From an uncultured SAR324 cluster bacterium (GTDB taxonomy: Bacteria > SAR324 > NAC60-12), in the NCBI GenBank assembly GCA_905182865.1, contig CAJJCY010000003.1, forward strand, positions 586,054 through 650,053: 64,000 nt of DNA, written 5' to 3'. Numbering within the stretch: the stretch's first letter is position 1; each line of letters opens with the position of its first letter. The notes beneath the pieces are model-generated. The model was not told the DNA's origin, did not search any database, and saw only the letters and a program-made list of their open reading frames with translations. The position numbers and the translations under genes are program-made. Positions 1 to 17,130 of this stretch are shown here, one piece after another.

Positions 1-665
1 GCATGCGAAACTCCGTATCCAGCCTGCGCGATCAGACTTGATACTTCCTGTATGCCGGTGCCGGACGCACCTATGATTCCAATGGCTCCTTGTGGGATCT
101 GGTTGGCAAAGGCAAGAGGTACACCACCGATGATGGCGGTCCCACAGTCTGGTCCCATGACCAACAACCCAGCCGCAACAGCTTCACGCTTGAGCGAGAC
201 CTCTTCGGAGAGCGAAACGTTATCACTGAACAGCATTACGTTCAGTCCAGCACGAAGGGCCTTGCGCGCCTCGGCTGCAGCAAAGTCCCCCGGAACTGAA
301 ATCAGGGCAAGGTTTGCAGCGGGCAGAATGTCTTGTGCCGAGCGCAATGTTCTGGGACGCAAAGTGGTAGTCCCCGTATGGCCAACCGTAGGCCGTTCCA
401 GCAGGATCTCGGCCTTGGCCAGAGCACTTGCCGCAGCGGTTTCATCCCGTGCCCTGACAGCGAGTATAAGATCTCCCCCAGTGGCTTTGCGGCTAGCTCT
501 TGCCAGAAGTTTGGCGTTATCGAGAAGGTCGAGGTTGGAAGGGGTTCCAATCATGAGGGCGGCATCCTCAACCCCGTCAAGACGAGTGATGGAGCGGGAA
601 ATCTGCATTAGTATCACCGAGTCAAGAAACAGTCCAGCACAGACGCGGTTCACAATTTTACTCAT
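1..665 (-). CDS. fdrA: FdrA/AllF-family protein (succinyl-CoA-ligase-like fold; oxamate carbamoyltransferase subunit family). N-terminal 221 codons only; the 3' end runs off the window.
   Basis: Not in the ORF track because it is truncated by the window edge. My translation of the minus strand from ATG 665-663 gives MSKIVNRVCAGLFLDSVILMQISRSITRLDGVEDAALMIGTPSN...ANLALISVPGDFAAAEARKALRAGLNVMLFSDNVSLSEE...LLVMGPDCGTAIIGGVPLAFAN...GIIGASGTGIQE, open to position 1. These blocks match E. coli FdrA as I remember it (DSVSLM, ANLALISVAGEY, LLVMGPDCGT, GASGTGIQE). ATGA start/stop overlap with the upstream gene. Confidence 0.8.
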   Translation of the reverse strand, partial: MSKIVNRVCAGLFLDSVILMQISRSITRLDGVEDAALMIGTPSNLDLLDNAKLLARASRKATGGDLILAVRARDETAAASALAKAEILLERPTVGHTGTTTLRPRTLRSAQDILPAANLALISVPGDFAAAEARKALRAGLNVMLFSDNVSLSEEVSLKREAVAAGLLVMGPDCGTAIIGGVPLAFANQIPQGAIGIIGASGTGIQEVSSLIAQAGYGVSH

Positions 666-1936
666 CTTACCCCCAGTCGAGTCGCCAGTGCTTTCAGAGC
701 CAGTTCAAAACAAGCCAGAGGTGCTTTTACGACACCTGCTCCGACCTGACCGATTCCCGGTTTGCGGTGAGCAATGCCAGTGTTAATTGTTGGAGTAATA
801 CCCGTTTCCACCACCAGACGTATGTCGATTCCGGTCGGCACCCCCTGATAATCAAGAGCTGGAATTGTCCATTCGGGGTTTTGTGTGAGCGTAATCTCAC
901 CCATGGTGCGGGTAAAATCGGCTGCAATGGACGGTGTTCCCGCACCGACGAAACCAGCAACGGCTGGAGCCGCTGCCATGGCAAACCCTCCAAGCCCGAT
1001 TGTCTCGACAATGGTGGAGTCCCCCATGTCAGGATTGGCATCGTCGGCACTAAATCCAGGAAAATAAAGACCCTCTGGCATTTCCACTGGAGCGGTGAAC
1101 CATTCATCGCCAAGACCACTTACGCGAATACCGAAGTCGGTACCATTACGGGTCATCGCGGTGACAACGCTGGAGCAGTCGATGTCACACACTGGATCCA
1201 TGATCGCCTTACCCAAGGCCATGGCCAAGTTGAGAAAGAACTGGTCATTTGAACCGATGAAGGATAGCATTTCGGCCAATGCGGTGCGATCATCCACGGT
1301 TCGTGCAAGGTCCGGGGCTAACGTCCGTAACAGCAGGCTTGAACAACCAAGGTTACGCTGGTGCATCTCATCACCCATGGTGAGCCCACGGGCGACCAGT
1401 GGTTTGAGCTCGATCCCCTTACCAGCACGAAGGGCGACACCGAGTGCCGGACCCAGTGTATCCCGTAGCCAGCCCAAACGCTTTAGCACAGATGCATCGT
1501 TTCCACCGAAACGCATCACCTTTCCAAGTCCCTCGTTGATGGTGCAGAAAGCATGGTTTCCGCTAGCTCGGTTCTCCACCACCAGCACCGGCTGGCTGAG
1601 TGTGGTCATACCTGTCATAGGGCCAACCGCACCAAAATCATGGTTTGGATTAAGACTAAATGCCCCAGACTCAGCCAATTGTTCTGCCTCGGCAAGGTCT
1701 GTGGCCCAACCCTCAAAGACTGCAATGCCAGTGACAGCTCCACGCATTGGCCCGCACATGTTTCCCCAGTCGATAGGAGGACCGGCATGAAGAATCATGC
1801 CCTCCTGAAGTGCTGGGATCGCCTCGCTTGCCGGGACCACGTCAATCAGTACCGGTTTGGCTTCGAGTATCCGACGGATGGCCTCCGCATTGGCCTTACG
1901 TATGTTCGAACCCACTTTCTCCGATGTAGTCATCAT
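662..1936 (-). CDS. ylbE: DUF1116 (YlbE/AllG-family) protein
   Basis: 424-aa ORF with ILHAGPPIDWGNMCGPMRGAVTGIAVFEGWA and SLNPNHDFGAVGPMTG blocks typical of DUF1116 as I recall the family. It sits directly upstream of fdrA-like with 4-nt ATGA overlaps at both ends, and is linked to carbamate kinase as in E. coli fdrA-ylbE-ylbF-ybcF. Confidence 0.8.
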   Translation of the reverse strand: MMTTSEKVGSNIRKANAEAIRRILEAKPVLIDVVPASEAIPALQEGMILHAGPPIDWGNMCGPMRGAVTGIAVFEGWATDLAEAEQLAESGAFSLNPNHDFGAVGPMTGMTTLSQPVLVVENRASGNHAFCTINEGLGKVMRFGGNDASVLKRLGWLRDTLGPALGVALRAGKGIELKPLVARGLTMGDEMHQRNLGCSSLLLRTLAPDLARTVDDRTALAEMLSFIGSNDQFFLNLAMALGKAIMDPVCDIDCSSVVTAMTRNGTDFGIRVSGLGDEWFTAPVEMPEGLYFPGFSADDANPDMGDSTIVETIGLGGFAMAAAPAVAGFVGAGTPSIAADFTRTMGEITLTQNPEWTIPALDYQGVPTGIDIRLVVETGITPTINTGIAHRKPGIGQVGAGVVKAPLACFELALKALATRLGVR

Positions 1937-2154
1937 TCATTCAGCTTAGAAAGGAGGTTCGCCAGTTCTACATCTCCACGTGCAGGAGGTGACCAGTCCA
2001 CATGCACCACTACTGTTCCCTGTTTCGTAAGTTCATCAGCAAAGGATGCGAGTCCAAGATTTATAACTTGAGGGGGACCATTCAGGAGAGACTGCTGTAC
2101 CGTCTTTTCCTTAATCTGGGCACCACTCTTCTGTTGGTCGGATGCTTTGTTCAT
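1933..2154 (-). CDS. Small protein resembling the C-terminal tail of FdrA-family proteins
   Basis: 73-aa ORF. Both ends overlap neighbouring genes by 4 nt, indicating translational coupling. PQVINLGLASFADELTKQGTVVVHVDWSPPARGDVELANLLSKL resembles the E. coli FdrA C-terminus as I remember it (VAVINIGLRSFALELQSASKPVVHYQWSPVAGGNKKLARLLERL). Confidence 0.5.
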   Translation of the reverse strand: MNKASDQQKSGAQIKEKTVQQSLLNGPPQVINLGLASFADELTKQGTVVVHVDWSPPARGDVELANLLSKLNE

Positions 2155-3386
2155 TGATTGTAGACCTTGTAGGCAGCATCCACCCCGGCACCTGGAGGTG
2201 CGGCGAAACCGTTACGCCGCATCACAATCTCAAGCGCACTGAGACAACGCAGGATGTTGGCCTTGTGACACACATAGCCCATCGTGCCAATTCGCCAGAT
2301 TTTTCCGCGTAAAGGACCGAAAGAAGTCCCGATTTCGAGGCCAAAGTCATCCAGTAACTGTTTCCGTACTTGCTCTCCGTCTCCAAGCGCATTTGGGATA
2401 AAGACTCCAGTCACGTTGTCCATCCGGTAACGTTCGTTTCCAAAGAGTTTTAGATTCATGGCTGTGAGACCTGCGCGAAGGGCTTGACTGGTGATGCGAT
2501 GACGGGCAAAACCCGCTTCTAATCCTTCGCGGAGAACTTCCTGAGCGCATGTATGGGCAGCGTAGAGCATAGAAGTAGCCTCGGTGTGATGATTGAGACG
2601 CTTAGAACTCCAGTAATCCATCAGCATTGCAAGGTCAAAGTAATTCGACTGCACGATCACTCCATCAGCATCGGAGGAATCCTCGGATCGGATACCAGCC
2701 TCGACATGCTTGCGTGCGTTCACGATTTCAGCAACGCGGTCGTTGATCGTGAGTGGTGAGGATCCTGGCGGACCTGAGAGGCATTTCTGTAACCCTGCTG
2801 TGACTGCATCAAGACACCACTTGTCAACCTCGATCGGCATACCTCCTAATGTTGCAGTTGCGTCCACGTAAACGACTGTGCCAGCCTCGCGGCATAAAGG
2901 GCCAATCTCATCTAGCGGCTGTGCCATAGTTGTTGACGTGTCCCCATGGACCAAAGCTACAAAACGCGGCTGGTGTGTGCGGATTGCATCGGCGATCTGC
3001 TCAGGTTCAAACACCGTTCCCCATTCAGTTTCAATGTTGATCACTTCCGCTTGGCAGCGTCTCGCAATTTCTGTCAGGAGGTGGCCAAAACGACCGAAAA
3101 TCGGGACCAACACCCGGTCGCCGGGTGATATCATTGAACTTAGACATGCCTCAATTCCCGCACGGGCTGTGCCATTGACCAGGAATGTCCATTGGTTGCG
3201 AGTTCGGTATACCTGCCGATAGAGCGCCATGACTTCGTCCATATAACCGGTGAACTGGGGGTCGAACTGACCTAGCATCGGCAATGACATGGCTCTCAAT
3301 ACTGCTGGGTATACATTAACCGGTCCAGGGCCCATCAAGAGGCGTTGTTCTGGTTCCAGCGTTTTGAGTTCTAAATGGTTCATCAA
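2151..3386 (-). CDS. Class V aminotransferase (serine/alanine-glyoxylate type). Candidate ureidoglycine-glyoxylate aminotransferase (PucG-like).
   Basis: 411-aa ORF with an AGXT/SPT-like sequence (LLMGPGPVNV..., GDRVLVPIFGRFG, HGDTSTT, VDATATLGG). The operon context is ureide catabolism. Confidence 0.75.
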   Translation of the reverse strand: MMNHLELKTLEPEQRLLMGPGPVNVYPAVLRAMSLPMLGQFDPQFTGYMDEVMALYRQVYRTRNQWTFLVNGTARAGIEACLSSMISPGDRVLVPIFGRFGHLLTEIARRCQAEVINIETEWGTVFEPEQIADAIRTHQPRFVALVHGDTSTTMAQPLDEIGPLCREAGTVVYVDATATLGGMPIEVDKWCLDAVTAGLQKCLSGPPGSSPLTINDRVAEIVNARKHVEAGIRSEDSSDADGVIVQSNYFDLAMLMDYWSSKRLNHHTEATSMLYAAHTCAQEVLREGLEAGFARHRITSQALRAGLTAMNLKLFGNERYRMDNVTGVFIPNALGDGEQVRKQLLDDFGLEIGTSFGPLRGKIWRIGTMGYVCHKANILRCLSALEIVMRRNGFAAPPGAGVDAAYKVYNQ

Positions 3387-3436: not shown

Positions 3437-4402
3437 CTACTGATCTGGAAAGATATGGGTGCCTGCTTTGCCAAGTAGTGCAGGCATTGCTTCATCAAGA
3501 TGCGCTATGGTCGCACGTTTTCCTCCACCTTCGATAAAACGAATTGCCGCTTCAATTTTAGGTCCCATACTACCCGCAGGGAACTGTCCTTCTTCAAAAT
3601 ATTTTTTTGCTTCTGAAACGGTGATTTGACCCAGTTCCTGTTGTTCCGGTTTTCCGAAGTTTATCGCAACTTGAGAAACAGCTGTCAGGATCATGATATC
3701 CTTGAATCCAAGCACATTTGCCATGTGGGCTGTAGTCAGGTCTTTGTCGATAACTGCTTCAACTCCACTTCGCAAGCCTTGACTGTTGCGGACAACCGGA
3801 ACACCGCCACCTCCGCCTGCAATAACTATAGTACCATTACTTGATAAGGATTCAACAAGAGAAATATCACAAATATGTTTGGGTTTTGGAGAGGCAACTA
3901 CCATGCGCCAACCACGTCCTGAATCTTCTTTCATCGTCCATCCCATTTTTTCTGAAAGATCTTTGGCTTCTTTCTCGTTGTAAAAATAACCCACGGGCTT
4001 GGTTGGATTCTTAAATCCAGGATCATTTGCGTCAACTTCAACCTGTGTCACCAGACCAACGACATGACGCTGGTTTCCGACTTTCCTCAAGGCATTTTCG
4101 AAAGCCTGCACCAGAAGATAAGCCGTCACACCCTGCGTGTTGGCTACGCAAATATCCAAAGACATTGGTGCAACCTGTTTATGGGCTAGGGCTTGACGCA
4201 TCAGGACCTTGCCAACCCCGGGGCCATTACCATGGGTAATTATCAACTCGTTTTCAAGTTCTAACAGCGGTAACAAAACATCTGCCGTTTCTTCAGCAAT
4301 GGCAACCTGTTCTTCAGATGTACCTTTTATTCCGGCCGGGTGAATCGCATTGCCGCCAAGAGCAACAATAATTCGTTTGGGAAATTCTTTGTTTGAATTC
4401 AT
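3437..4402 (-). CDS. arcC: Carbamate kinase
   Basis: 321-aa ORF with IIVALGGNAI, ITHGNGPGVG, IAGGGGGVPV and AVIDKDL, which are canonical carbamate kinase motifs. Confidence 0.9.
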   Translation of the reverse strand: MNSNKEFPKRIIVALGGNAIHPAGIKGTSEEQVAIAEETADVLLPLLELENELIITHGNGPGVGKVLMRQALAHKQVAPMSLDICVANTQGVTAYLLVQAFENALRKVGNQRHVVGLVTQVEVDANDPGFKNPTKPVGYFYNEKEAKDLSEKMGWTMKEDSGRGWRMVVASPKPKHICDISLVESLSSNGTIVIAGGGGGVPVVRNSQGLRSGVEAVIDKDLTTAHMANVLGFKDIMILTAVSQVAINFGKPEQQELGQITVSEAKKYFEEGQFPAGSMGPKIEAAIRFIEGGGKRATIAHLDEAMPALLGKAGTHIFPDQ

Positions 4403-4428: not shown

Positions 4429-5430
4429 TTATTGAATAACAAAAACATTGAACAATTCGGATATTTCCAGTGCATCAAGGTTTGCATCCAGAGCCAAAGA
4501 CAAAAGCAATGCTGATTTTTGCGGATTAAGCAAACCTGACGGAAAAACTTTTTTACTTTTGACAGGAGTCATGGTTTCCGCTAGAACTGTAACCTTTGAC
4601 ACCCGAGAAGAAACGACGACAGTGCATCCAGAATTTGCCGTTTCAGCGACTATTCTATTCAGGTTGTCAGGCATTGTACCACCTCCAAATCCTGCCACCA
4701 CCAATCCTTTACAAGCATTTCCCTCAAAATCGGCAAGTGGCTGATCTCCGCAACCAGCACGAAGTAAAACAATATCTACAAACGGCAACTCGTCATCATT
4801 CCGCAAATGGTTGTGGAATCGTCCCACTAGCGGAGAAAGATTTGGTGATCCGAAAAGCAAAAGGCTTTCACCGACAATCTTTCCTATCGGCCCACCGGGA
4901 TAAGCATGAAAAGAATCTAGTGCCACAGAATCAGTTTTGATGATTTGCCATCCGGGAATCACCAAACCGTTCATTACTACAAGCAATCCATGACTTTGAA
5001 GTTGCGGAGAAGTGGCTGCAAGAACCGCTTGAAATATATTCGCAGGGCCGTCTGCACTAAGTGCGGTGCTGGGACGCATGGCTGCAGTTAAAACTACCGG
5101 TTTTTTTGGTTTGCACACCAAATCAAGAAAAAAAGCTGCTTCTTCAAGTGTGTCGGTTCCGTGGGTAACAACAACGCCGTCAACTTCTGAGTCTGCTGTT
5201 AACTCCTCAATTCTTCGGGCCAGTATTCGCCATTGGTACGGTCCAAGATTTTCAGAACCCGTGGCAAACATGGTTTCTGAATTAACATCAGCCAATCTTT
5301 CCAAACCATCAATTGCTCCGACAAGTTCGGAAGCATCTACGCGCCCGGACTCATAAGCCGCATCTGTTGCCGTAGAACCAGTTCCGGAAATCGTTCCACC
5401 GGTGCCTATAACATGAATTTTCGGTTTGAT
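4429..5430 (-). CDS. L-asparaginase-family amidohydrolase (type I-like), probably with a non-canonical ATC start
   Basis: The track ORF starts at TTG 5304 and contains HGTDTLEE. The same frame stays open upstream to TGA 5448-5446 and encodes (I)KPKIHVIGTGGTISGTGSTATDAAYESG, which carries the catalytic TGGTI motif. There is no ATG/GTG/TTG upstream of that motif. An AGAGG (complement of 5436-5440) lies 5 nt before ATC 5430-5428. Confidence 0.7.
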   Translation of the reverse strand: MKPKIHVIGTGGTISGTGSTATDAAYESGRVDASELVGAIDGLERLADVNSETMFATGSENLGPYQWRILARRIEELTADSEVDGVVVTHGTDTLEEAAFFLDLVCKPKKPVVLTAAMRPSTALSADGPANIFQAVLAATSPQLQSHGLLVVMNGLVIPGWQIIKTDSVALDSFHAYPGGPIGKIVGESLLLFGSPNLSPLVGRFHNHLRNDDELPFVDIVLLRAGCGDQPLADFEGNACKGLVVAGFGGGTMPDNLNRIVAETANSGCTVVVSSRVSKVTVLAETMTPVKSKKVFPSGLLNPQKSALLLSLALDANLDALEISELFNVFVIQ

Positions 5431-5463
5431 AGTAACCTCTTTTCAACTGTCGTTTACCGTGCT

Positions 5464-6483
5464 TCAAACACCGCAGATATTTGCCAATAAGGACATCCGG
5501 AGAGGCACAGAAAATCCTATCTGCTTGAAATAAAGTTCGTGTTCACTGGCATCAATCGCAAAATCAAACTCACCTTCGTTTCGAGGGAGGGAGTGCATCA
5601 GGCCAACAGTCTTGCCGCTTTTTTGTTTTATTTTCTGAAGTCCTTCAAGAGTGAAGTAGAATTCAGCCATTTTTTTCAAGAAATCATCTCGTCCGGGATC
5701 CCCCTTTTTCACAGAACAACCGGGAAGATACAGGAGATCAACTCCTTCATCGGCAAGCATTTCTTCGTGCTGCCCAATAGTCAAATCGTTAACTTCGGTG
5801 AAATTGGCGTTCATTGCTTTCAACTTTTCGCGGATGACTGTAGGTACTCCCAGACCTGTAGTCCCTGAATAAATAAGTTTGGCTCCCATACGTGCCAGTC
5901 CAAGCCCGAAAGACTGGCCGGATCGCGCTCTTGACAAATCAGGTGTAGCGATCATGACGGTCATTTCTTTGAAATCGCCTCCAAGGGCACGATATGCCGT
6001 GTACATGTCCAGTAGCCCCTGAGTCGGGTGGGTTACGTTACCGTAACCTCCACTGATGATTGGCGAAGCATCGCTTCCCAATTGCTCTATGGTGTCAATA
6101 ACGCCTTCATCAGGATGGCGCAAGACGATGACATCTGCGTACTGAGAGGTCACTCTAAGAGAATCATAAAGGGATTCCCCCTTTGCGGCAGCAGAACTGA
6201 CCAAAGGATTGGATTCTGTAATGACATTACCACCCAGCCGAAACATTGCCGTTTCGTGACTGAAACGTGTACGGGTACTTGGTTGAAAAAACTGTGTGCA
6301 GAGTATCTTCCCTTCAAGCAACGGGATACGGTTACGCCAAAATGGTTCAAGCATTTCTGCTGTCTTGAAGATGTTTTCGAGTTCTGTAGACGAATAATCG
6401 TCAATGAAAATTAAATGCTGCCCTTTGATACCGGTTTTCTCAATTTGCTTAAAAGTATCATCCTTAATAAATGTAAGTGTCAT
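5464..6483 (-). CDS. Aspartate/ornithine carbamoyltransferase-superfamily enzyme of unknown second-substrate specificity
   Basis: 339-aa ORF. It has the carbamoyl-phosphate motifs QPSTRTRFSHE and THPTQGLLD, and a C-terminal HSLPR (ATCase has HPLPR). The ATCase aspartate-binding block after D(I/V)LYMTRVQKER reads DLLYLPGCSVKKGD here. Confidence 0.8.
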   Translation of the reverse strand: MTLTFIKDDTFKQIEKTGIKGQHLIFIDDYSSTELENIFKTAEMLEPFWRNRIPLLEGKILCTQFFQPSTRTRFSHETAMFRLGGNVITESNPLVSSAAAKGESLYDSLRVTSQYADVIVLRHPDEGVIDTIEQLGSDASPIISGGYGNVTHPTQGLLDMYTAYRALGGDFKEMTVMIATPDLSRARSGQSFGLGLARMGAKLIYSGTTGLGVPTVIREKLKAMNANFTEVNDLTIGQHEEMLADEGVDLLYLPGCSVKKGDPGRDDFLKKMAEFYFTLEGLQKIKQKSGKTVGLMHSLPRNEGEFDFAIDASEHELYFKQIGFSVPLRMSLLANICGV

Positions 6484-6522: not shown

Positions 6523-7293
6523 TTAGATATCCGCATCACGGTTCATATCTTTGCTGTAGATGTACCATAGCGGTTCACGCCCGGTGGTATAGGCAGCTTG
6601 CTGGGTGAACGGTCCAAACCAGATAAAATCTTCCTTCTGCACCGACAACCATTCATCACCAAGCAAGTAAAGACCTTGTCCGCCAAGCAGATAGGCACCA
6701 TGTTCCTGAACATGAGTTTCCACGAAAGGATGACAGCCGTCAGGCATAAATTTGAGCGTATGCATATTCATGTCGAACTCCAGATCATTGGGCAATAAAT
6801 CACGCAGAAATACATTGTCCATTTCATCATAAATGTTCTCTTCAATCTTGTTGATGTCTCCAAAAACGATCCATGGTTTCAGGTCACCCAAAGGGACATA
6901 ACGTTGTTTGTACAGTAGAACACGAACTGACTCAGAAGACGAGTTTTCAAATTCAATGCCTGTATCCGGTGGTGCAAACGCATAACCTCCGGCCTTTAAT
7001 TTTTCGGTTATGTCTCCGACACGAACCTTAAGTTCACCGTCCCCATCCATTACAAACAGGAAGGTCTCAACTCCTGGAGCCTCAACGAATGGAACTAATG
7101 TTTTTCCTCCTGCTTCAACGCTTCCGACATACTGTACAAAGCTTGCGCCGTGTTTTGGTGAGGCGATAATCGTAAGTTTGCATCCCTCAAAACCGGGGAT
7201 GGAATTAATAACCCTCCCTTCTGGAGGAATGATAGTAAAGATTCCGGGTTTTATAACGGCTCGACTTTCAAGAAATCCTTTTGGGTACGGCAT
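6523..7293 (-). CDS. allE: (S)-ureidoglycine aminohydrolase (bicupin, YlbA/AllE family)
   Basis: The 256-aa ORF has the length and two-cupin layout of AllE/UGlyAH (…FVETHVQEHGAYLLGGQGLYLLGDEW…), in a ureide-operon context. Confidence 0.8.
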   Translation of the reverse strand: MPYPKGFLESRAVIKPGIFTIIPPEGRVINSIPGFEGCKLTIIASPKHGASFVQYVGSVEAGGKTLVPFVEAPGVETFLFVMDGDGELKVRVGDITEKLKAGGYAFAPPDTGIEFENSSSESVRVLLYKQRYVPLGDLKPWIVFGDINKIEENIYDEMDNVFLRDLLPNDLEFDMNMHTLKFMPDGCHPFVETHVQEHGAYLLGGQGLYLLGDEWLSVQKEDFIWFGPFTQQAAYTTGREPLWYIYSKDMNRDADI

Positions 7294-7471: not shown

Positions 7472-8110
7472 TTAATTTGGAATAGCATCAAGGAATTCCT
7501 GGTAGTAAGGTCGTCTAAATTCCTTGAGAAGGTGTTCAAGTTCAGAAAGCGGATCTTTGTTGTCATCCACTCTGAGATGGCAAAATGGAAAGGGTTGATT
7601 TTTAATCGTCAATAGTGCAGCCGATTGCCTGCCACGAACATCTCCTCCGACAGCTTCTCCTGCTTTAAGTGCTCGCAACAACCTCTCCTCAATTGGTTCG
7701 TCCTTCTTAGATTTTATTACTTCAAAGCATGCTTCTAGTACTTGTTCCCCCACGAGCATATTTCCCGCCAAGCTGAAATTTTTTCCACATTTATGTCCTG
7801 ACCATTCTACAGTATCTTTGCCTGTCCAGGCCCAAGCATTCCCTGACACGTCTACACCATGCAACTGTCTTGAATCTTTGGCGGGATCTTCTTTTAAAGC
7901 TGCCAAAAGCGAATCCTTCAGGGAATAACCGCTAGCCATTTTTTCCAATCCTTTTAACCCCAGATATGGATTGGTTGCCGCTTGCGTCGCTATTGCCCCT
8001 ATACCTGACTTTAAGTGTGGGACAAGTGCTCCTACAGCAAAATGACATGTAGCCACAGCAACTCCTAGTGTTTTCGACTTTGGATCACACATTACGATAG
8101 AGAAAGTCAT
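7472..8110 (-). CDS. DUF1028-family protein (Ntn-hydrolase-like fold)
   Basis: The 212-aa ORF begins MTFSIVMCDPKSKTLGVAVATCHFAVGALVPH..., the characteristic DUF1028 N-terminus (M-T-F-S-I) as I recall the family. It is the first gene of the minus-strand ureide operon. Confidence 0.7.
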   Translation of the reverse strand: MTFSIVMCDPKSKTLGVAVATCHFAVGALVPHLKSGIGAIATQAATNPYLGLKGLEKMASGYSLKDSLLAALKEDPAKDSRQLHGVDVSGNAWAWTGKDTVEWSGHKCGKNFSLAGNMLVGEQVLEACFEVIKSKKDEPIEERLLRALKAGEAVGGDVRGRQSAALLTIKNQPFPFCHLRVDDNKDPLSELEHLLKEFRRPYYQEFLDAIPN

Positions 8111-8605: not shown

Positions 8606-10152
8606 ATGAAGATAATTAACTTTAAATCAACGCTTATCATGCTATATTATTTGCATGTTTTTGTCATCTTTTGCTCAAGCAAAAGATATTATTTGGGCTC
8701 GTTATGGTGATATTGATACACTTGACCCACATAGAGCCACGAGCACTTTGTCTTTACAGGTGTGGGGCCTTATTTATGATACCTTGCTGGCGACTGACAA
8801 GGATGGGAATGCCGTACCACACTTGGCTAAGTCTTGGGAAGTCTAATTCAGATGGGACTGAATATACTTTTGTCGCTGAATAAAGGGTCTAAGTGTCATG
8901 ACGGGACCGCAATGGATGCAAATGATGTTAAATATACTGTAGAAAAAGCTTTCAGTAAATCTAGTCCAAGTTTGACAAAAGGCAGTTGGGGGCCAATTAC
9001 TAAGGTTGAAGTTCTCAATCCACTAACTGTAAGCTTCCATCTTAAGACACCATTTGTTGCACTTATTTCATTTCTTGCTGACAGTTTTTCGTCAATTATT
9101 TGCGACTCTAATAAAGGTAAATCAGGTTTTGGTACAAGCGCAGCGATTGGATCTGGGCCATGGAAATTTGTCTCATGGACCAAAGGCGACAGGATAGTTT
9201 TAAAGAAAAATCCTAATTTTAAGAATTTTGGTAAATTGCCAAAAAATCCAGGGGCCCCTTATATGGATGGTCTTGTAATAGCGGTAGTTCCTGAACCACA
9301 AGCACGTCTGGCGGCACTCAAAACCGGTGAAGTACATATAGCTGAACCACCATTTGATGATGTCCAGGCCCTTAAGGATTCTGGAGCGCTTAAAATTATG
9401 GTTGCAGAAAATACTGGACAAAATGTTTTTTGGGAATTTGCTGCACACAGGCCACCTTTCAACGATAAACGTGCTCGATTAGCAGTAGGCCATGCCACAG
9501 ATCCAGAAACAGCTATTAATTTGATTTATGGTGATCTTTCTATGACGGAGGCGTGCCCAGTTTCTAGGGGCGTTTTTGGTAATGACCAAGAGTTTTGCTT
9601 AAAGTATAGGCCAAATTACAATCCTGAAAAAGCCAGGGCATTGCTAGCAGAAATTGGATATGGTCCAAGCAATCCACTTGAAACAACAATGATTGTATGG
9701 ACCGGTGGTAATCGCCCAAAACTTGCTGAAGTTTTTCAATCACAACTTGCTGAAGTGAATATAAAAGCAAATATTGAACCATTATTGGTTCTATAATGTA
9801 ATTTTGAAAAATGAAAATAAAACAAGTAAAAATGTTGAGCATGGATATGATGACATGGTCATGGTACGATCCTGATATCCTTTATGCTTTGTGGCATTCT
9901 CCGGGCGCTTATCGGGGATATACTACACCAGGACTTGATGCGATGTTAGAAAAAACTAGAGTCTTAAGCAATAAAGATGAACGAAAAGCGCTTGTTCAAG
10001 ATGTATTCAAGCATCTTCTCGAAAATGGTGTTCACATTCCTCTTTATACTCCTGGGTGGGAATGGGTTTTTGCAGTCCGACCGGAGGTAAAGGGATTCAT
10101 TGTTGCCCCTTTTGTCTATCCAACGTTCAATGATGTTAGGATAGAGAATTAG
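8606..10152 (+). pseudogene. Family-5 (Dpp/Opp/Nik-type) periplasmic substrate-binding protein, disrupted by at least 5 frame changes
   Basis: GGAGGA at 8595-8600 precedes ATG 8606 (MKIINFKSTLIMLYYL...). The coding signal then hops frames: near 8650 (…FLSSFAQAKDIIWARYGDIDTLDPH), near 8844 (…AKSWEV|NSDGTEYTFV), near 8872 (|LNKGSKCHDGT…), near 9785 (…NIKANIEP|…NVEHGYD) and near 9845 (|MDMMTWSWYDPD…). Each hop is +1. Confidence 0.75.
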
Positions 10153-10168
10153 TTTATAAATTATACTT

Positions 10169-10204
10169 GAACGGGGTCTGGAAAACAGCCCCCGTTCATT
10201 TTTC
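10169..10204 (+). terminator. Rho-independent terminator candidate after the binding-protein gene
   Basis: GAACGGGG (10169-10176) pairs with CCCCGTTC (10190-10197), with a 13-nt loop, followed by ATTTTT. Confidence 0.6.
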
Positions 10205-10331
10205 ATCTTCTAAACCCACCTTTACATTTCAATTACAAAGGTTGAATAAATAGCCCTTTTTACCTAATAATTGATGATTAAACATTAATCCTGCATTAAT
10301 TTTATAAAAAATATTTTCAAGACTTGAAATA

Positions 10332-11243
10332 ATGATTCGTTTCCTCTTAGGAAAAATTGTAATGGCTTTTCTCACTGTTTTCATTACAACCATGATTGAA
10401 ACTTCATATCATGGTAATCCAAACCTAAAACCAGTAGGATATCAACACGATTTTACTCCTGAACAAATTGAAGAGGTACGTCGTAATCTTGGACTCGATA
10501 AACCAATTTATGTTCAATATTTCATGTATATTGAAAAGCTATTTCAAGGAGATTTAGGTTATACCATTCGAGGTGGACAACCGGTTATTCAAGTCATTTT
10601 TCAAAGGTTACCAAACACAATTATGCTCGCATGTGCAGCAATGATTATTGCTATTGGTATTGGCTTACCGATTGGTTTTTTTGCCGCATACAAGAAAGGC
10701 ACAATTTGGGATACATTTGTAATGATTATTGCTATTGCAGGTATTTCCATGCCTCATTTCTGGTTAGGATTAATACTTCTTTTCTTCTTTGCAGTGGAGC
10801 TTGGGTGGCTTCCAGTAAGTGGTAGTGGATATATGAATCTTATCCTACCTGCCTTGACTTTGGGCCTATCAAATGCAGCTATTATTGCACGTTTAACTAG
10901 GTCATCCATGATTGATGTAATGCAGCAAGATTTTGTACAGACTGCTTTGGCTAAAGGACTTCCTAAAGGGCTTGTTTTAAGGCGTCATGTTTTAAGAGCT
11001 GGACTAGTACCACTAATCACAATGATGGGTTTGCAATTTGCCTTTATGATGGGAGGTGCAATAGTAGTTGAAAACATTTTTTCGTGGAATGGGGTTGGAA
11101 GAATGGCTGTAGAGGCAATTTTTCAAAGAGATTACCCAATCATACAAGGTTTTATCCTAACTTTCGCAGTGGTTGTAGTAATTGTATCAATATTTTTGGA
11201 TACTATTTATGCTTTTATTGATCCTCGAATTCGAAGGAGCTAA
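10332..11243 (+). CDS. ABC transporter permease (DppB/OppB-like)
   Basis: 303-aa ORF. It is polytopic, with a LGLDKPIYVQY block and the binding-protein-dependent permease layout. Confidence 0.85.
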   Translation: MIRFLLGKIVMAFLTVFITTMIETSYHGNPNLKPVGYQHDFTPEQIEEVRRNLGLDKPIYVQYFMYIEKLFQGDLGYTIRGGQPVIQVIFQRLPNTIMLACAAMIIAIGIGLPIGFFAAYKKGTIWDTFVMIIAIAGISMPHFWLGLILLFFFAVELGWLPVSGSGYMNLILPALTLGLSNAAIIARLTRSSMIDVMQQDFVQTALAKGLPKGLVLRRHVLRAGLVPLITMMGLQFAFMMGGAIVVENIFSWNGVGRMAVEAIFQRDYPIIQGFILTFAVVVVIVSIFLDTIYAFIDPRIRRS

Positions 11244-11257
11244 AGGGAATATCCAAT

Positions 11258-12130
11258 ATGTCTGAAAAATTGAAGAGCGAAGAGTTAAAGACTAAAAACC
11301 AATCATTTTTCATAAGGCTATTGTCTACACCTAATGGTTTCATAGGCTTAACGATTGTCATCATACTTATACTATCTGCAGGATTTGCCGATTTTTTGGC
11401 TCCTTTTTCTCCAACAAAAATGATGGTTGGGAACCGATTCCTTCCTCCGAATTTAGAATTTATTTTGGGTACAGATGAGTTTGGAAGGGATATGGTCTCT
11501 CGTATTTTATTTGGTAGTCGATTGACCTTGATGATTGGCGCCATAGCAGTTGGGATTTCTATGACAACCGGAATAATGATCGGCCTTTTTGCCGCTTATA
11601 AGGGTGGTTGGCTAGAAATTTTACTGATGCGAAGCACAGATATTCTTTTTTCGTTTACAGAAACGCTTATTGCTCTTTCTTGTGTTGCTGTTTTAGGGCC
11701 AAGTTTAACCAATGCTGTTATAGCCGTTGGTATTGCGGGGATCCCATTTTATGCTCGGACCTGCTATTCTGCTGCTTTAGTTGAGAAATCCAAACCTTAT
11801 TTTGAAGCAAGTATCGCATGCGGAGCAAGTCATTCTAGACTTGTTTTCATGCATCTGTTACCAAATGTTTTACCTACAATGATTGTTATTTCAACTTTAG
11901 GTGTATCTACTGCAATTTTGGCAGCAGCAGGCTTAAGTTTTCTTGGACTTGGCGCTCAACCTCCACTTCCTGAATGGGGGTATATGCTTGCAGGTTCAAG
12001 AGATTATATTAACCGTGCACCATGGTTAATGACTATACCAGGTGTTGCAATTGCCTTAACAGTTCTTGGTTTTAATCTTTTAGGTGACGGATTTAGAACA
12101 GTTCTCGACCCTGTAGAAAGGCAGAGATGA
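11258..12130 (+). CDS. ABC transporter permease (DppC/OppC-like)
   Basis: 290-aa ORF with ILGTDEFGRDMVSRILFGSR, typical of DppC/OppC. It overlaps the ATPase start by 4 nt. Confidence 0.85.
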   Translation: MSEKLKSEELKTKNQSFFIRLLSTPNGFIGLTIVIILILSAGFADFLAPFSPTKMMVGNRFLPPNLEFILGTDEFGRDMVSRILFGSRLTLMIGAIAVGISMTTGIMIGLFAAYKGGWLEILLMRSTDILFSFTETLIALSCVAVLGPSLTNAVIAVGIAGIPFYARTCYSAALVEKSKPYFEASIACGASHSRLVFMHLLPNVLPTMIVISTLGVSTAILAAAGLSFLGLGAQPPLPEWGYMLAGSRDYINRAPWLMTIPGVAIALTVLGFNLLGDGFRTVLDPVERQR

Positions 12131-13804
12131 ATGAGTCTATAATTCTTTCAGTTAATAACTTGAATGTTAGCATTAAATCTAAAGGAATCGTATCTCAAAT
12201 TGTACATGATTTGTCGTTTGATGTTAACAGAGGTGAAATTTTATCCATAGTTGGTGAATCTGGTTCAGGAAAAAGTATGACGGCTAAAGCTATTTTGGGA
12301 TTATTACCTGAAAATAGTTCTGTTAGTGGCAAAGTTATGTTTCAGGGTCGCAATCTACGCGACTTGAACGACGAACAAGATGCGCAAGATGTCCGGGGTG
12401 CAAAGATTGGTATGATTTTTCAAGAACCTATGACTTCTTTAAATCCAGTATTTACATGCGGAGATCAAGTAATGGAAGCAATTGTTCTTCATCAAAAATT
12501 AAATACTAAAGATGCTAAATTATGTTGGCATCCGTGAGCCTGAAACTCGGCTTGGGGCCTATCCGCATCAGCTTTCAGGTGGTCAGCGGCAACGCATTAT
12601 GATTGCCATGGCCCTTGCCAACCGCCCGGATGTCTTGATTGCCGATGAGCCGACAACGGCTCTGGATGTGACTATTCAGGCGCAGATTTTAGAATTATTG
12701 GCTGAGTTGAAAGTCTCAGAGGGGATGGGTCTTTTGTTCATCACCCATGATCTGGCGATTGTGCGCCGGATTGCCGATCGGGTCTGTGTGATGAAAGACG
12801 GTGAGATCGTCGAGACTGGCAGCACGGCAGCGATTTTTGCAAATCCGCAACCCTATACAAAATCTTTACTGGCAGCTGTACCGCGTTTAGATGTTAAAAC
12901 ATTTAAAAATGAATCTTTTACGAAAACTTCAACAATTCCATTAGTAACAATAAATCGTGTATCTAAAACGTTTACAAATAATAAATATTTATTCTTTGAT
13001 GGTTGGAAAACTAATGCTCTAAATGAAGTAAGTCTTGAAATTAATTATGGAGAAACAGTTGCTTTAGTTGGGGAAAGTGGCTCTGGGAAATCAACACTTG
13101 GGAGAGCAATAGTTAAACTAGTAAATATAGATTCTGGAAATATTGTAATTGATAGTTCAAATATTAATTCACCAAATTCTAATGATTTACGTAAGCTCCG
13201 ATCAAATGTTCAGATAATTTTTCAAGATCCCTATTCATCGCTTGATCCCAGATTTTCAGTCGGTAGAAGTATTGCAGAACCAATTCTAATTCAAAAAAAA
13301 TGTAGTCGATCAGAAGTAAAAGATAGGGTGTCAATTCTTTTAAAGAGTGTTGGTTTAAATAATGAAATGGCAAGCCGTTATCCACATGAATTTTCTGGAG
13401 GTCAACGTCAACGTGTAGCTATAGCAAGGGCTCTTGCATCTGAACCGAAATTTATCGTAGCTGATGAGCCGACATCGGCTCTAGATGTAACCATACAAGC
13501 ACAAATACTTGAACTATTGATTAACCTTAAAAAAGAGCTTCATAAGACAATTGTTTTTATTACTCATGACCTTGATGAGGCAATCCGGATCGGACACAGG
13601 ATAGCAATAATGAAAGACGGTATAATTGAACAACTAGATACTGTTTTAGGAAATCCTCATAACGCTTATACAAAATCTTTACTTGACGCGGCGCCTTATC
13701 CCGATCCGGAGAAAAGGAAAAAATTAAAAAGAAAAAGTGATTTAAAATCATTTAATACGGGGCCACTAATTGAAATATCACACAATCATTGGGCAGCATC
13801 ATAA
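12127..13804 (+). pseudogene. Fused double-ATPase (DppD+DppF-like) ABC component, split by a +1 frameshift near 12500-12515
   Basis: ORF 12127-12537 carries Walker A (GESGSGKS) and ends …HQKLNTKDAKLCWHP*. ORF 12512-13804 continues in the next frame with (I)LKMLNYVGIREPETRLGAYPHQLSGGQRQR…, then a second full ABC domain (GESGSGKST … FSGGQRQR … ADEPTSALD). Confidence 0.75.
12526..12888. other. GC-rich patch inside an AT-rich ATPase gene (compositionally foreign segment)
   Basis: Hand counts: 12601-12660 = 37/60 GC, against 23/60 at 12241-12300 and 14/60 at 12901-12960. The peptide ALDVTIQAQILELL is encoded twice in the gene with different codon usage: gatgtgactattcaggcgcagatt in the patch, and gatgtaaccatacaagcacaaata in domain 2. 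Confidence 0.7.
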
Positions 13805-13986: not shown

Positions 13987-14895
13987 TTAATTTGTTGAGT
14001 GGTGTTTGTGCCAGTGTCGGGCTATGTCGATGCGGCGGCACAGCCAGACATCAGCATGGCTGCTTACATAATCAATAAATTTTTCCAAAGAGGCGGTGCG
14101 TCCGGGCCGACCGGTCAGTCGGCAGTGCAATCCGATACTTAACATTTTTGGGGAGGCTTCACCCTCGGCATATAGCACATCAAACGCATCCCGAAGATAT
14201 GCAAAAAACTGCTCTCCTGAATTAAAACCCTGTGGGCTGGCAAAGCGCATATCGTTGGTGTCCAGAGTGTAGGGAACCACCAAATGAGGATCTCCTGCAG
14301 GGGTTTCTACCCAGTAAGGCAAATCGTCCGCATAAGAATCGGCATCGTATAAAAACCCTCCGACTTCCTGTACCAAACGCTGAGTGTTGGAACTAGTGCG
14401 CCCGGTGTACCAACCCAAAGGTCTGCTCCCCGTAACACGGGTATGGATATCAATGGCTTTTGCCATATGTTCACGCTCGATGTCTTCGGGTATATTTTTG
14501 TAATCAATCCAGCGATAGCCGTGAGACGCAATTTCCCAATCGGCTTGCAGCATGGCCTCAACAGCTGCCGGATTACGTTCCAGAGCCATAGCGACACCGA
14601 AAATTGTCACTGGAATATTCCGGCTTGTGAAAAGACGATGGAGTCGCCAAAATCCGGCCCTGCTTCCATATTCGTAGATTGATTCCATGCTCATGTGTCG
14701 TGCACCTGTGAAGGGTGGCGCGCCGATGATTTCGGAAAGGAATGTTTCGGATGCAGGGTCTCCGTGGAGGATACAGTTTTCTCCTCCTTCCTCATAATTG
14801 ATGACAAATTGGAGGGCAATCCTGGACTTCTCGGGCCACTCAGGATGTGGAGGTTTTTGGCCGTAGCCAAGCATGTTGCGGGGATAATGTTCCAT
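13987..14895 (-). CDS. puuE: Allantoinase, PuuE type (polysaccharide-deacetylase fold)
   Basis: 302-aa ORF with RNMLGYGQKPPHPEWP…IALQFVINYEEGGE…ASHGYRWIDY…LSIGLHCRLTGRPGR, matching PuuE as I recall it. Confidence 0.85.
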   Translation of the reverse strand: MEHYPRNMLGYGQKPPHPEWPEKSRIALQFVINYEEGGENCILHGDPASETFLSEIIGAPPFTGARHMSMESIYEYGSRAGFWRLHRLFTSRNIPVTIFGVAMALERNPAAVEAMLQADWEIASHGYRWIDYKNIPEDIEREHMAKAIDIHTRVTGSRPLGWYTGRTSSNTQRLVQEVGGFLYDADSYADDLPYWVETPAGDPHLVVPYTLDTNDMRFASPQGFNSGEQFFAYLRDAFDVLYAEGEASPKMLSIGLHCRLTGRPGRTASLEKFIDYVSSHADVWLCRRIDIARHWHKHHSTN

Positions 14896-14992: not shown

Positions 14993-16198
14993 ATGGACTC
15001 CTATATTATCGAATGGTTAAATCTGGTTGTCCGCTGGATTCATGTAATTACAGGAATTGCCTGGATTGGTGCTTCATTTTTTTTCAATTGGCTGGACAGT
15101 CAACTCATTCCGCCGGAAAATCCGCAACCTAAAGTGGAGGGCGAGTTGTGGATGATACACAGTGGGGGTTTTTATCAATTGAAAAAAACGATGATCTCAC
15201 CCTCCGAAATCCCAAGAGTTCTGCATTGGTTTAAATGGGAAGCTTATTCGACTTGGATCAGCGGTATTTTCCTGCTCGGAATTGTGTATTACACTGGTTC
15301 CGGAGTTTATTTGATTGATTCAGAAATCGCAGATTTAAGTTATGGAATGGCGGTTAGTATCAGCTTGGGAACGATTTTGGTGTCTTGGTTAATTTATGAT
15401 TTTATTTGGGCTTCTGCTTTGAGTGAGAAAGGCTGGATTATAGGGATGATTTCCTTTTTGCTTTTGTTTGGAATTATCTGGTGGTTTCATCAATGGTTTG
15501 GCTCACGTGCCGCTTACATTCATGTCGGGGCGGTCATGGGAACCTTAATGGTGGGCAATGTATGGCGGCGTATCATCCCCTCACAAACCAAACTGGTGGA
15601 AGCAGTCAAAGCTGGGAAAACTCCGGAAGCTTCTCTGGGAATAAAAGCAAAACAACGCTCTTTACATAATAATTACATGACCTTGCCTGTCGTGTTCATT
15701 ATGATCAGCAACCATTTCCCAAGCACTTTTGCGCATTATTATAATTGGGCGATTTTGATAGCGATAATAGTGATTGGAGCCACCGTACGCCACTTCTTCA
15801 ATCTCAAAAATAAAGGGCATTTGAATGTTTGGATTTTGCCAGTGGCCATGGCAGCAATTTTTGCACTTATTTATGTGACGAAACCGGATGCCACGATTTC
15901 AAATTCACCGGACACGGTTACATTTGGAACAGAGCATATTCCGTATGCCCTGGTGCGCACCATTTTGGATCAGCGTTGTGTGAGTTGTCATTCTTCAAGG
16001 CCTACCGATGACGTTTTCAGAATTGCTCCCAAAGGCATTATGTTAGATAATAACGAAAGAGTTCATGCACTGGCAACCCTCATTAAAATTCATTCAGTTA
16101 CGACAATTGCTATGCCGCTAGGAAATAAAACCGGAATGACACACGAAGAGAGGGTTATTCTTGGAAGATGGGTTGACGAAGGTGCATCCATCAAGTGA
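14993..16198 (+). CDS. puuD: Membrane urate hydroxylase PuuD (cytochrome c-containing)
   Basis: 401-aa polytopic ORF. N-terminus is WLNLVVRWIHVITGIAWIGASFFFNWLD, and the C-terminal domain has a CVSCH haem-c motif. Confidence 0.8.
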   Translation: MDSYIIEWLNLVVRWIHVITGIAWIGASFFFNWLDSQLIPPENPQPKVEGELWMIHSGGFYQLKKTMISPSEIPRVLHWFKWEAYSTWISGIFLLGIVYYTGSGVYLIDSEIADLSYGMAVSISLGTILVSWLIYDFIWASALSEKGWIIGMISFLLLFGIIWWFHQWFGSRAAYIHVGAVMGTLMVGNVWRRIIPSQTKLVEAVKAGKTPEASLGIKAKQRSLHNNYMTLPVVFIMISNHFPSTFAHYYNWAILIAIIVIGATVRHFFNLKNKGHLNVWILPVAMAAIFALIYVTKPDATISNSPDTVTFGTEHIPYALVRTILDQRCVSCHSSRPTDDVFRIAPKGIMLDNNERVHALATLIKIHSVTTIAMPLGNKTGMTHEERVILGRWVDEGASIK

Positions 16199-16242: not shown

Positions 16243-16587
16243 ATGAGTCCTATCACTACCCATGTACTTGATACCTCTCAAGGCTGTCCGGGAGCAAATA
16301 TACGGATACGCTTAGAACAACAACAATCTGACAAAACCTGGCAGGAAATAGCGTCTGGATCGACAAATTCTGACGGGCGGATTGCGAATTTGATTCAGGA
16401 AGATGAGATGATTAATTCGGGAGTTTATCGGATGCTTTTTGAGACAGGTCCCTATTTTGAGCAGCAGGGAACAGCTTATTTTTATCCAGAAATTGAAGTT
16501 CGTTTTTTACTCAATCATACGGAGCAGCATTATCACATTCCGTTGCTGTTGAGTCCGTTTGGTTACAGCACATATCGGGGAAGTTAA
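16243..16587 (+). CDS. uraH: 5-hydroxyisourate hydrolase (transthyretin-like)
   Basis: 114-aa ORF with ITTHVLDTSQGCPG and HYHIPLLLSPFGYSTYRGS. The C-terminal YRGS is the HIUase signature. Confidence 0.9.
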   Translation: MSPITTHVLDTSQGCPGANIRIRLEQQQSDKTWQEIASGSTNSDGRIANLIQEDEMINSGVYRMLFETGPYFEQQGTAYFYPEIEVRFLLNHTEQHYHIPLLLSPFGYSTYRGS

Positions 16588-16623: not shown

Positions 16624-17130
16624 TTATGCGTCTCTCAGCATTTTATTAAGCCGCAAATTTGTAATTTTCATTTGTTCACCAGTTGCAATCTTTAGTTCTG
16701 TTTCCGGAGAATTCTCCAGCCGAGTCCGGAGCAGTTCCAGCATTTCCGATGCGCTTTTTCCCGTGGCGCAGACGATAAATATGTAACCGAATTTTTCTGC
16801 ATATTTTTGATTTTCGGTTTTCAATTTCAATTTTGTCTGCTCATCTGCGGACATCATTCCGGCTTGTTCTTTGCTCGTCCAGCTTTCCGTATTTTTTGCA
16901 TTATCCGGAGGTTTACTGGCACCAATTTTTGGATGAGCAGCAAAAGCCTCCAAATAATCGACTTCTCCCAAATCAGACCAAATTTGACCTGCCAACTCCA
17001 ACAGATGTGATACTGACTTGTAAGGCCGAACTGCTAACATTTTTTCAGTCCATTGGCTGGAACTGCAACATTTAAGCAGTTCAATATGTGCCTGTTTGAT
17101 ATCACAATGGTTCAAATCTTCTAAATTCAC
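16624..17130 (-). CDS. uraD: 2-oxo-4-hydroxy-4-carboxy-5-ureidoimidazoline (OHCU) decarboxylase
   Basis: 168-aa ORF with EAFAAHPKIG…SKEQAG…YAEKFGYIFIVCATGKSASEML, typical of UraD/PucL. Confidence 0.85.
   Translation of the reverse strand: MNLEDLNHCDIKQAHIELLKCCSSSQWTEKMLAVRPYKSVSHLLELAGQIWSDLGEVDYLEAFAAHPKIGASKPPDNAKNTESWTSKEQAGMMSADEQTKLKLKTENQKYAEKFGYIFIVCATGKSASEMLELLRTRLENSPETELKIATGEQMKITNLRLNKMLRDA

Follow-up and report, generated by a model that had tools for sequence, protein, structure and literature searches.

Known catabolic transcarbamylases and the locus under study

Ureidoglycine carbamoyltransferase (UGTCase) was described in Rubrobacter xylanophilus, in which the protein Rxyl_2847 (UniProt Q1AS69) reversibly converts allantoate and Pi to ureidoglycine and carbamoyl phosphate (Barba et al., 2013, PMC4016543). 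From allantoate, the enzyme in purified form made ureidoglycine only when arsenate was present, and carbamoyl phosphate only when phosphate was present, the latter product being trapped as citrulline. The rates were 0.05 µmol/min/mg at 37 °C and 5.9 µmol/min/mg at 60 °C, and nothing was detectable without arsenate or phosphate (PMC4016543). The protein is one of the "pseudo-ATCases" of that study, which retain the STRT and HPTQ motifs without the RxQ motif of aspartate carbamoyltransferase (ATCase), and UGTCase has been taken up by two later reviews as a third catabolic transcarbamylase. Here we describe a gene (5464..6483, minus strand) within a stretch of 64,000 nucleotides ("the window") from contig CAJJCY010000003.1 of an uncultured SAR324 cluster bacterium. 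The gene product belongs by its sequence to the UGTCase family, known since 2013, and probably acts as a catabolic UGTCase on allantoate.

Two further kinds of system resemble UGTCase in their logic. The catabolic ornithine and putrescine transcarbamylases (OTCase and PTCase), which work with carbamate kinase in the arginine and agmatine deiminase pathways, also phosphorolyse a ureido compound in a reaction that is pulled toward ATP, but they fall in the OTCase branch and act on other substrates. AllFGH from Escherichia coli, composed of AllF (FdrA), AllG (DUF1116) and AllH (DUF2877), likewise supplies a catabolic carbamate kinase with carbamoyl phosphate, which it releases from a ureido intermediate that arises when allantoin is broken down (Kim and Kim, 2024, PMC11326118). 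However, AllFGH is unrelated to UGTCase in sequence and fold, consists of three subunits and uses oxalurate as substrate (PMC11326118).

In Table 1 of Barba et al. (2013, PMC4016543), the UGTCase group is the row "H[ST]LP + GX[SC]", which corresponds to the tree labels ATC_III_HTLP (Q1AS69) and ATC_III_HSLP (D8GTE4), and the tree label ATC_III_HPLA denotes a marine group; the rows of the table are numbered differently from the groups in the text. The other pseudo-ATCases of that study, namely the HPLA proteins of Rhodopirellula (Q7UHC6), Nitrosococcus (Q3JD05) and Idiomarina (Q5QU49) as well as A1SH59 of Nocardioides, are comparable to the protein described here in being paralogues of the ATCase branch without RxQ that are annotated as ATCase.

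The gene product groups with the UGTCase family

The open reading frame (ORF) starts with ATG, is of full length and encodes 339 amino acids. The predicted protein showed 45-46% identity to Rxyl_2847 (BLASTP: 45% over 317 amino acids, E 4e-87) and 58.5% identity to D8GTE4 of C. ljungdahlii, as well as 28-36% identity to ATCases and 22-24% to the OTCases compared. Reference sequences from the supplementary alignment of Barba et al. (2013, PMC4016543) were aligned with MAFFT, 20 reference transcarbamylases being included, and a Kimura-distance neighbor-joining tree was calculated from 299 columns with 300 bootstraps (distance method only; A1SH59 not in the tree). The protein, 14 metagenome homologues, Q1AS69 and D8GTE4 formed one clade with 100% bootstrap support, and this clade stood on a long branch apart from the ATCases, the HPLA pseudo-ATCases, A1TLR3 of Acidovorax and the OTCases. 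An earlier note on this DNA, written from the sequence alone, had proposed such a phylogeny and had doubted that the protein is a PyrB; the grouping with the UGTCase references, and not inside bona fide PyrB, bears this doubt out.

Four signatures, FFQPSTRTR, TPD(L/M)xxAR(S/T)G(Q/H)S, YLPGCS and H(S/T)LPR, were common to the protein and both UGTCase references and occurred in nothing else in the alignment. The YLPGCS motif (residues 252-257, 5713..5730, minus strand), which marks the 240s loop of the UGTCase clade, is found unchanged in Q1AS69 and D8GTE4 and supplies the G-x-(S/C) of UGTCase at the position of R-x-Q (G255-C256-S257). The HSLPR motif (residues 297-301, 5581..5595, minus strand) corresponds to the H(S/T)LP signature of the clade, which takes the place of HPLP in ATCase according to the alignment as well as to Table 1 and the tree labels of Barba et al. 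(2013). Moreover, carbamate kinase and allantoinase, with which the UGTCase clade is associated, are both encoded in the window. The earlier note had regarded the activity as not yet assigned to this clade; this statement has to be corrected, because the clade was already assigned through the assayed Rxyl_2847, to which the protein is linked by its identity, by YLPGCS and H(S/T)LPR and by the bootstrap support.

The likeness to Rxyl_2847 includes QPSTRTR, HPTQ, YLPGCS, H(S/T)LPR and the predicted ligand residues, and near both genes lie a carbamate kinase gene, an asparaginase-like gene, an allantoinase gene and genes for the conversion of urate to allantoin. The two differ in HTLP (Rubrobacter) versus HSLP (here) and in gene order, which is UGTCase, carbamate kinase, asparaginase in Rubrobacter but UGTCase, asparaginase, carbamate kinase here. 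Moreover, the Rubrobacter host is a thermophilic actinobacterium whereas the present one is a mesophilic organism, probably marine and resembling proteobacteria, and genes for ureidoglycine aminohydrolase, an HpxJ/PucG aminotransferase and AllF/AllG are present here while none of them appears in the Rubrobacter operon table.

The second-substrate site lacks the ligands of the aspartate beta-carboxylate

The carbamoyl-phosphate motifs, called intact in the earlier note, were all located in the ORF. These are STRTR (residues 69-73, 6265..6279) inside the clade-specific FFQPSTRTR, HPTQ (residues 152-155, 6019..6030) and HSLPR, all read from the minus strand and assigned by alignment. The whole carbamoyl-phosphate site, consisting of STRT, R, HPTQ and the S/K of the neighbouring chain, is preserved. 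In the alignment, all carbamoyl-phosphate ligands were retained together with R187, the last residue of DLSRAR (residues 182-187, 5923..5940, minus strand). R187 is equivalent to R167 in ATCase and to R189 in Rxyl_2847 and is the predicted ligand of the alpha-carboxylate (alignment and list of Shi et al., 2015). The residues S69, R71, T72, R73, S97, K101, R122, H152 and Q155 were invariant in both alignment A1 and alignment A2, the latter comprising 34 metagenome homologues with 59-93% identity; T70 did not vary in A1 and was conserved to 90% or more in A2.

The segment DLLYLPGCSVKKGD (residues 249-262, 5698..5739, minus strand; assigned by motif position) contains the YLPGCS signature. In the HMMER alignment with the ATCase structures of M. 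jannaschii and P. abyssi, "ylpgcs" falls on "yvtriq", and in both the HMMER and the MAFFT alignments with solved and reference ATCases G255-C256-S257 aligns with R-(V/I)-Q (R229 and Q231 in E. coli). Thus, G255 replaces R229 and S257 replaces Q231 of ATCase, and GCSVKK, which does not fit the RxQxER motif, stands where the 240s loop of ATCase has RVQKER. Both ligands for the beta-carboxylate of aspartate are therefore absent, as the earlier note had supposed. Since Y252, L253, P254, G255, C256 and S257 were invariant in the 34 homologues of A2, the substitution is no accident of a single sequence; YLPGCS was invariant in A1 as well. S298 was invariant in A2 and nearly invariant in A1, whose Rubrobacter reference has HTLP. 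Finally, the residues R189, S258, K261, T298 and L299, which the review of Shi et al. (2015) lists as predicted second-substrate residues of UGTCase, correspond to R187, S257, K260, S298 and L299 in the present protein, and all of these are invariant or nearly so. The altered aspartate site is accounted for by a family that is already known, though obscure.

The protein is not an aspartate or ornithine carbamoyltransferase

The AlphaFold2 model of the protein (predicted local distance difference test score pLDDT 87.1, predicted template-modelling score pTM 0.88) adopts the ATCase fold, and its best structural match was the ATCase catalytic chain 1ml4 with template-modelling (TM) scores of 0.77/0.85. 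Compared with the PyrB catalytic chains of P. abyssi (1ml4), M. jannaschii (2rgw) and E. coli, the protein shares the fold (TM 0.77-0.85), the carbamoyl-phosphate site (STRT, R105, HPTQ and the equivalents of S80 and K84) and the equivalent of R167. It differs by the replacement of R229 by G, of Q231 by S and of HPLP by HSLP, by the lack of a regulatory-chain gene and by its catabolic gene context. These best family and structure matches to ATCases, together with the database names, would speak for a genuine but divergent PyrB serving pyrimidine synthesis. In the protein search, all relatives that carry a name go under "aspartate carbamoyltransferase", "aspartate/ornithine carbamoyltransferase family protein" or "hypothetical". 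A genuine PyrB is nevertheless excluded by model cutoffs, motifs, tree position and gene context. The two curated ATCase models tested (TIGR00670 and NF002032) gave 174.6 bits against a cutoff of 236.95 for the better one and 159.9 bits against a cutoff of 263 for the second, R229 and Q231 are invariantly replaced by G and S, and the long, fully supported branch sets the protein apart from the ATCases. Neither pyrI nor pyrC was found nearby, and the genes that surround it in 78 related loci (see below) are purine-catabolic. Moreover, pseudo-ATCases of this sort coexist with authentic PyrB (Barba et al., 2013, PMC4016543).

The C-terminal Pfam domain also scored under its gathering threshold (26.7 versus 29.4 bits), the protein fell below all curated ATCase and OTCase cutoffs, and no model of NCBIfam release 20 passed for the 339-residue protein. 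Assignment to YgeW was rejected (24.7 bits against a cutoff of 500). OTCase and PTCase were rejected as well; the identity to the OTCases is low, these stand outside the clade, and the scores lie below the curated OTCase cutoffs. The HPLA and Nocardioides pseudo-ATCase groups were also rejected; they carry different signatures, namely HPLA with A/S-I-A/S, or HSLP with VxP. These proteins are 28-31% identical to the present one, the HPLA members branch elsewhere in the tree, and their gene context consists of Na+ symporter and HyuC-like genes.

Purine-catabolic genes of the window and the proposed pathway

The UGTCase gene is part of a minus-strand cluster transcribed in the order DUF1028, ureidoglycine aminohydrolase, UGTCase, asparaginase-like protein, carbamate kinase, aminotransferase, AllG and AllF, with 26-214 bases between neighbouring genes except for AllG and AllF, which overlap by 4 bases. 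Directly upstream of the UGTCase gene lies the gene for a cupin-type (S)-ureidoglycine aminohydrolase (6523..7293; TIGR03214, 325.8 bits against a cutoff of 200), which would consume the UGTCase product. Downstream, carbamate kinase (3437..4402; NF009007, 336.8 bits against a cutoff of 266) is predicted to convert carbamoyl phosphate and ADP to ATP and carbamate. It is followed by a class V aminotransferase of the HpxJ/PucG type (2151..3386; 519.6 bits, E 5e-155, to PDB entry 3nnk and 448.7 bits to PucG, 3isl), a predicted ureidoglycine-glyoxylate aminotransferase that would form oxalurate and glycine from ureidoglycine and glyoxylate. The last two genes encode the oxamate carbamoyltransferase subunits AllG (DUF1116; complete, 662..1936; PF06545, 288.9 bits; function according to Kim and Kim, 2024, PMC11326118) and AllF (FdrA; 1..665; NF004760, 236 bits). 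AllF is represented by its N-terminal 221 amino acids and runs off the left end of the window. The earlier note had placed the UGTCase gene between ureidoglycine aminohydrolase and carbamate kinase, which is correct on the aminohydrolase side, but the asparaginase-like gene (4429 to about 5430) intervenes before the kinase. It had also recognized FdrA and DUF1116 in the operon and two different carbamoyl-phosphate-forming systems, UGTCase and AllF/AllG, sharing the operon with one carbamate kinase; both observations were confirmed, and about 14 related genomes show the same arrangement.

The genes for the preceding steps lie further to the right. These encode a PuuE allantoinase (13987..14895, minus strand; TIGR03212, 542.8 bits against a cutoff of 424.6), which converts allantoin to allantoate and would supply the UGTCase substrate, and a membrane urate hydroxylase of the PuuD type (14993..16198, plus strand; Pfam Urate_ox_N, 391.9 bits). 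A 5-hydroxyisourate (HIU) hydrolase (16243..16587, plus strand; TIGR02962, 148.8 bits against a cutoff of 87.45) and an OHCU decarboxylase (16624..17130, minus strand; TIGR03180, 174.1 bits against a cutoff of 139.4) follow. AllC, AllB, ureidoglycolate lyase, AllH and xanthine dehydrogenase gave no match in the 64-kb window, and allantoicase was not among the queries. A single step separates PuuE from the ureidoglycine enzymes, and this is the UGTCase reaction.

By analogy to the characterized family member, the gene therefore probably encodes a catabolic UGTCase which turns allantoate and Pi into (S)-ureidoglycine and carbamoyl phosphate. Allantoate would be delivered by the neighbouring urate hydroxylase, HIU hydrolase, OHCU decarboxylase and PuuE, and UGTCase would split it with Pi, standing in for allantoate amidohydrolase or allantoicase. 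The carbamoyl-phosphate half-site is unchanged relative to ATCase. The loss of Arg and Gln from the 240s loop (YLPGCSVKK) would remove the positive, polar clamp for the beta-carboxylate, so that a pocket with Gly and Ser in their place should admit ureidoglycine with its neutral ureido side chain. Ser257, Lys260 and Ser298 are proposed as ligands of this side chain, with R187 presumably still binding the alpha-carboxylate. The unfavourable reaction would be pulled by carbamate kinase, encoded two genes downstream, which would turn carbamoyl phosphate and ADP into ATP, NH3 and CO2 by the same logic as in the catabolic OTCase and PTCase pathways. For ureidoglycine, the gene content suggests two fates. 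One is deamination by the cupin aminohydrolase, which would yield ureidoglycolate. In the other, the HpxJ/PucG-type aminotransferase may convert it with glyoxylate to oxalurate, from which AllFGH may form, by phosphorolysis, oxamate and a further carbamoyl phosphate that the same kinase would use. For the present organism, we infer substrate, direction and this two-step harvest of carbamoyl phosphate from family precedent and gene content. The suggestion of the earlier note that a purine-derived ureido compound is cleaved phosphorolytically by a catabolic transcarbamylase is, on family precedent and context, the most likely one. Of its three candidate substrates, allantoate is favoured by both, and oxalurate and ureidoglycine are not.

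Related loci in other genomes

One genome per species was scanned for the peptides FFQPSTRTR and D[LF][VLI]YLPGCS. Of 316 matching stretches, 299 encoded a relative; 78 loci were kept, and their neighbouring genes were mapped by tblastn with reference proteins. The closest relatives came from an uncultured marine proteobacterium (89% identity) and a SAR324 metagenome-assembled genome (MAG; 84%). Ureidoglycine aminohydrolase was the immediate upstream neighbour in 53 of the 78 loci, carbamate kinase was present in 62 and allantoinase (PuuE or AllB) in 47; among the 48 loci flanked by 5 kb or more on either side, 38 had an allantoinase. In most loci, the conversion of allantoate to ureidoglycine was the sole unfilled step between allantoinase and a ureidoglycine-consuming enzyme.

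Three layouts were distinguished. About 14 loci (Acidiferrobacteraceae, Arenicellales, SUP05, SAR324) had the marine layout PuuE, UGTCase, asparaginase-like protein, carbamate kinase, aminotransferase, AllG, AllF and AllH, so that the order of the window from UGTCase to AllF recurs in these marine genomes; in 10 related loci, AllF was followed by AllH. Ureidoglycine aminohydrolase was absent from all 14 other loci that have both aminotransferase and AllG, and the window alone carries it (compared with L001, L002 and L021-L036). Two competing fates of ureidoglycine are encoded side by side in the window. The second layout, racemase, ureidoglycine aminohydrolase, UGTCase, carbamate kinase, ureidoglycolate lyase and GntR, was found in Desulfocapsaceae, Desulfobulbaceae and "delta proteobacterium" MAGs. 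The third is a gut and oral layout comprising ureidoglycine aminohydrolase, UGTCase, a YfcC-like transporter, AllB, carbamate kinase, AraC and an NCS1 permease (Sutterella, Neisseria, Cardiobacterium, Bilophila and Pseudomonas delhiensis).

Two of the "delta proteobacterium" loci (L011 and L017) showed two further UGTCase- or ATCase-like tblastn matches downstream of the GntR gene, which could be tandem paralogues.

An AllC-like M20 hydrolase was encoded in 9 of the 78 loci, and it stood beside UGTCase only where no carbamate kinase lay within 10 kb (L039-L042, L044, L046-L048 and L076). In the well-flanked loci, either carbamate kinase or the AllC-like gene was present in 46 of 48, and both together in none. 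A representative of the AllC-like proteins passed only a generic carbamoylase-family model and reached 235 bits against 598 with the AllC equivalog TIGR03176, and it may therefore be an amidohydrolase acting on ureidoglycolate or on a carbamoyl amino acid. A credible gene for allantoate amidohydrolase hardly ever lies close to UGTCase in the loci studied.

These nine loci, Kistimonas and Crenobacter among them, are the principal caveat to allantoate as the substrate, since a true allantoate hydrolase there would make an allantoate-cleaving transcarbamylase redundant. A UGTCase that replaces AllC and feeds carbamate kinase may thus not apply to every lineage. Further points weigh in the same direction. 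An allantoate amidohydrolase or allantoicase could be encoded elsewhere in the genome, beyond the 64 kb. The sole assayed enzyme of the family, Rxyl_2847, is only 45% identical to the present protein, comes from a thermophilic actinobacterium and has low activity at 37 °C, and the available text of Barba et al. (2013, PMC4016543) reports no alternative ureido substrates for it. In the PDB copy searched there was no UGTCase structure, nor any solved structure closer than the ATCase chains. The modest identity and the unexplored substrate range of the family in that text leave some room for a member of the UGTCase clade with another physiological substrate, such as oxalurate (as in the classical oxamate transcarbamylase), ureidoglycolate, ureidoglycine or an N-carbamoyl amino acid. 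We regard this as rather unlikely. All predicted second-substrate residues are invariant between the protein and the assayed enzyme, allantoate to ureidoglycine is the lone gap between allantoinase and ureidoglycine aminohydrolase in most loci, and the AllC-like representative fails the cutoffs of the AllC equivalog. Oxalurate in particular is unlikely because AllF and AllG, which are encoded in the same operon and also in about 14 related loci, would make another oxalurate-cleaving enzyme superfluous.

It is also conceivable that the enzyme works in the carbamoylating direction, which the equilibrium of transcarbamylases favours, or that it is a non-catalytic or decaying paralogue, as the noncanonical start of the asparaginase-like neighbour and a nearby ABC transporter that looks broken, both hinting at gene decay or assembly errors, might suggest. 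Both are very improbable, as the catalytic residues are intact and invariant in the 34 homologues, the ORF is of full length, and the linkage to carbamate kinase in 62 of the 78 loci is a hallmark of catabolic transcarbamylase pathways.

A possible double-phosphorolytic pathway and the asparaginase-like partner

Beyond the cleavage of allantoate by UGTCase, which we consider the probable function of the gene, the operon and the about 14 syntenic marine MAG loci might together encode an undescribed "double-phosphorolytic" ureide pathway. This would consist of UGTCase, then the HpxJ/PucG aminotransferase and then AllFGH, with one kinase for both carbamoyl phosphates, a yield of 2 ATP per allantoin without hydrolytic loss, and the asparaginase-like protein as a new amidase. 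We propose this only tentatively, the odds being somewhat against it. It is a testable extension, at the level of the operon, of the known family.

The asparaginase-like gene (4429 to about 5430, minus strand) encodes a cytoplasmic protein related to type II asparaginases with the N- and C-terminal Pfam Asparaginase domains and 195 bits to the E. coli AnsB structures; unlike periplasmic AnsB, it has no signal peptide. No ATG, GTG or TTG was found upstream of the catalytic TGGT motif (region 4429-5445, minus strand), which is probably why the earlier note missed the gene. An ATC at 5430-5428, located 5 nucleotides past AAGAGG, lies exactly at the position of the ATG of the relatives. This suggests either a rare ATC start, which is the probable start codon, or a mutation of the start codon. 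The gene was found in 32 of the 78 UGTCase loci, and in Rubrobacter it corresponds to Rxyl_2849, near Rxyl_2847. The protein could be an amidase of the double-phosphorolytic pathway that acts on oxamate or on ureidoglycine, an aza-analogue of asparagine.

The first gene of the minus-strand cluster encodes a DUF1028 protein (7472..8110; PF06267, 226 bits), whose sole solved relative is the hypothetical protein 2imh. DUF1028 occurred in none of the 78 related UGTCase loci and is thus specific to the present operon.

Annotation of the family and its implications

The 299 relatives, from species-representative genomes, span gut and oral bacteria (Sutterella, Bilophila, Neisseria, Cardiobacterium) as well as abundant marine lineages. 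The combined signature FFQPSTRTR + YLPGCS + H[ST]LP would correct the misannotation of these proteins as ATCase. A phosphorolytic instead of a hydrolytic cleavage of allantoate would conserve energy, so that purines would serve as a source of ATP besides nitrogen. That UGTCase is linked with AllFGH, itself identified recently, and with an HpxJ-type aminotransferase suggests a route in which carbamoyl phosphate is gained from both ureido groups. In the searchable literature on ureidoglycine, carbamate kinase, oxamate and allantoate, no description was found of UGTCase paired with a second carbamoyl-phosphate-forming enzyme. Three aspects appear to be undescribed in the searchable literature, namely the breadth of the UGTCase family with its systematic misannotation as ATCase, the conserved operon of UGTCase, HpxJ/PucG aminotransferase, AllFGH and a single carbamate kinase, and the conserved asparaginase-like partner.

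Further observations in the window

The GC content was 55% over positions 1-2000 (AllG/AllF), about 41% in most of the window, 36-37% in an ABC transporter region and 43-55% in the purine operon; this heterogeneous composition of the purine cluster may reflect a mosaic origin. The ABC transporter, of the peptide type (8834-13804, plus strand), looks broken. Its family-5 binding protein is in two pieces (8834-9796 and 9811-10152) without the N-terminus, and its double ATPase is split through a change of frame (12127-12537 and 12512-13804). These are either pseudogenes or assembly errors. Finally, an ORF of 471 amino acids (23491-24906, minus strand) encodes a protein in which an N-terminal part that is Old Yellow Enzyme-like (NamA-like, residues 21-269) is joined to a C-terminal domain of the Rid/RutC type (residues 377-466), an unusual fusion.

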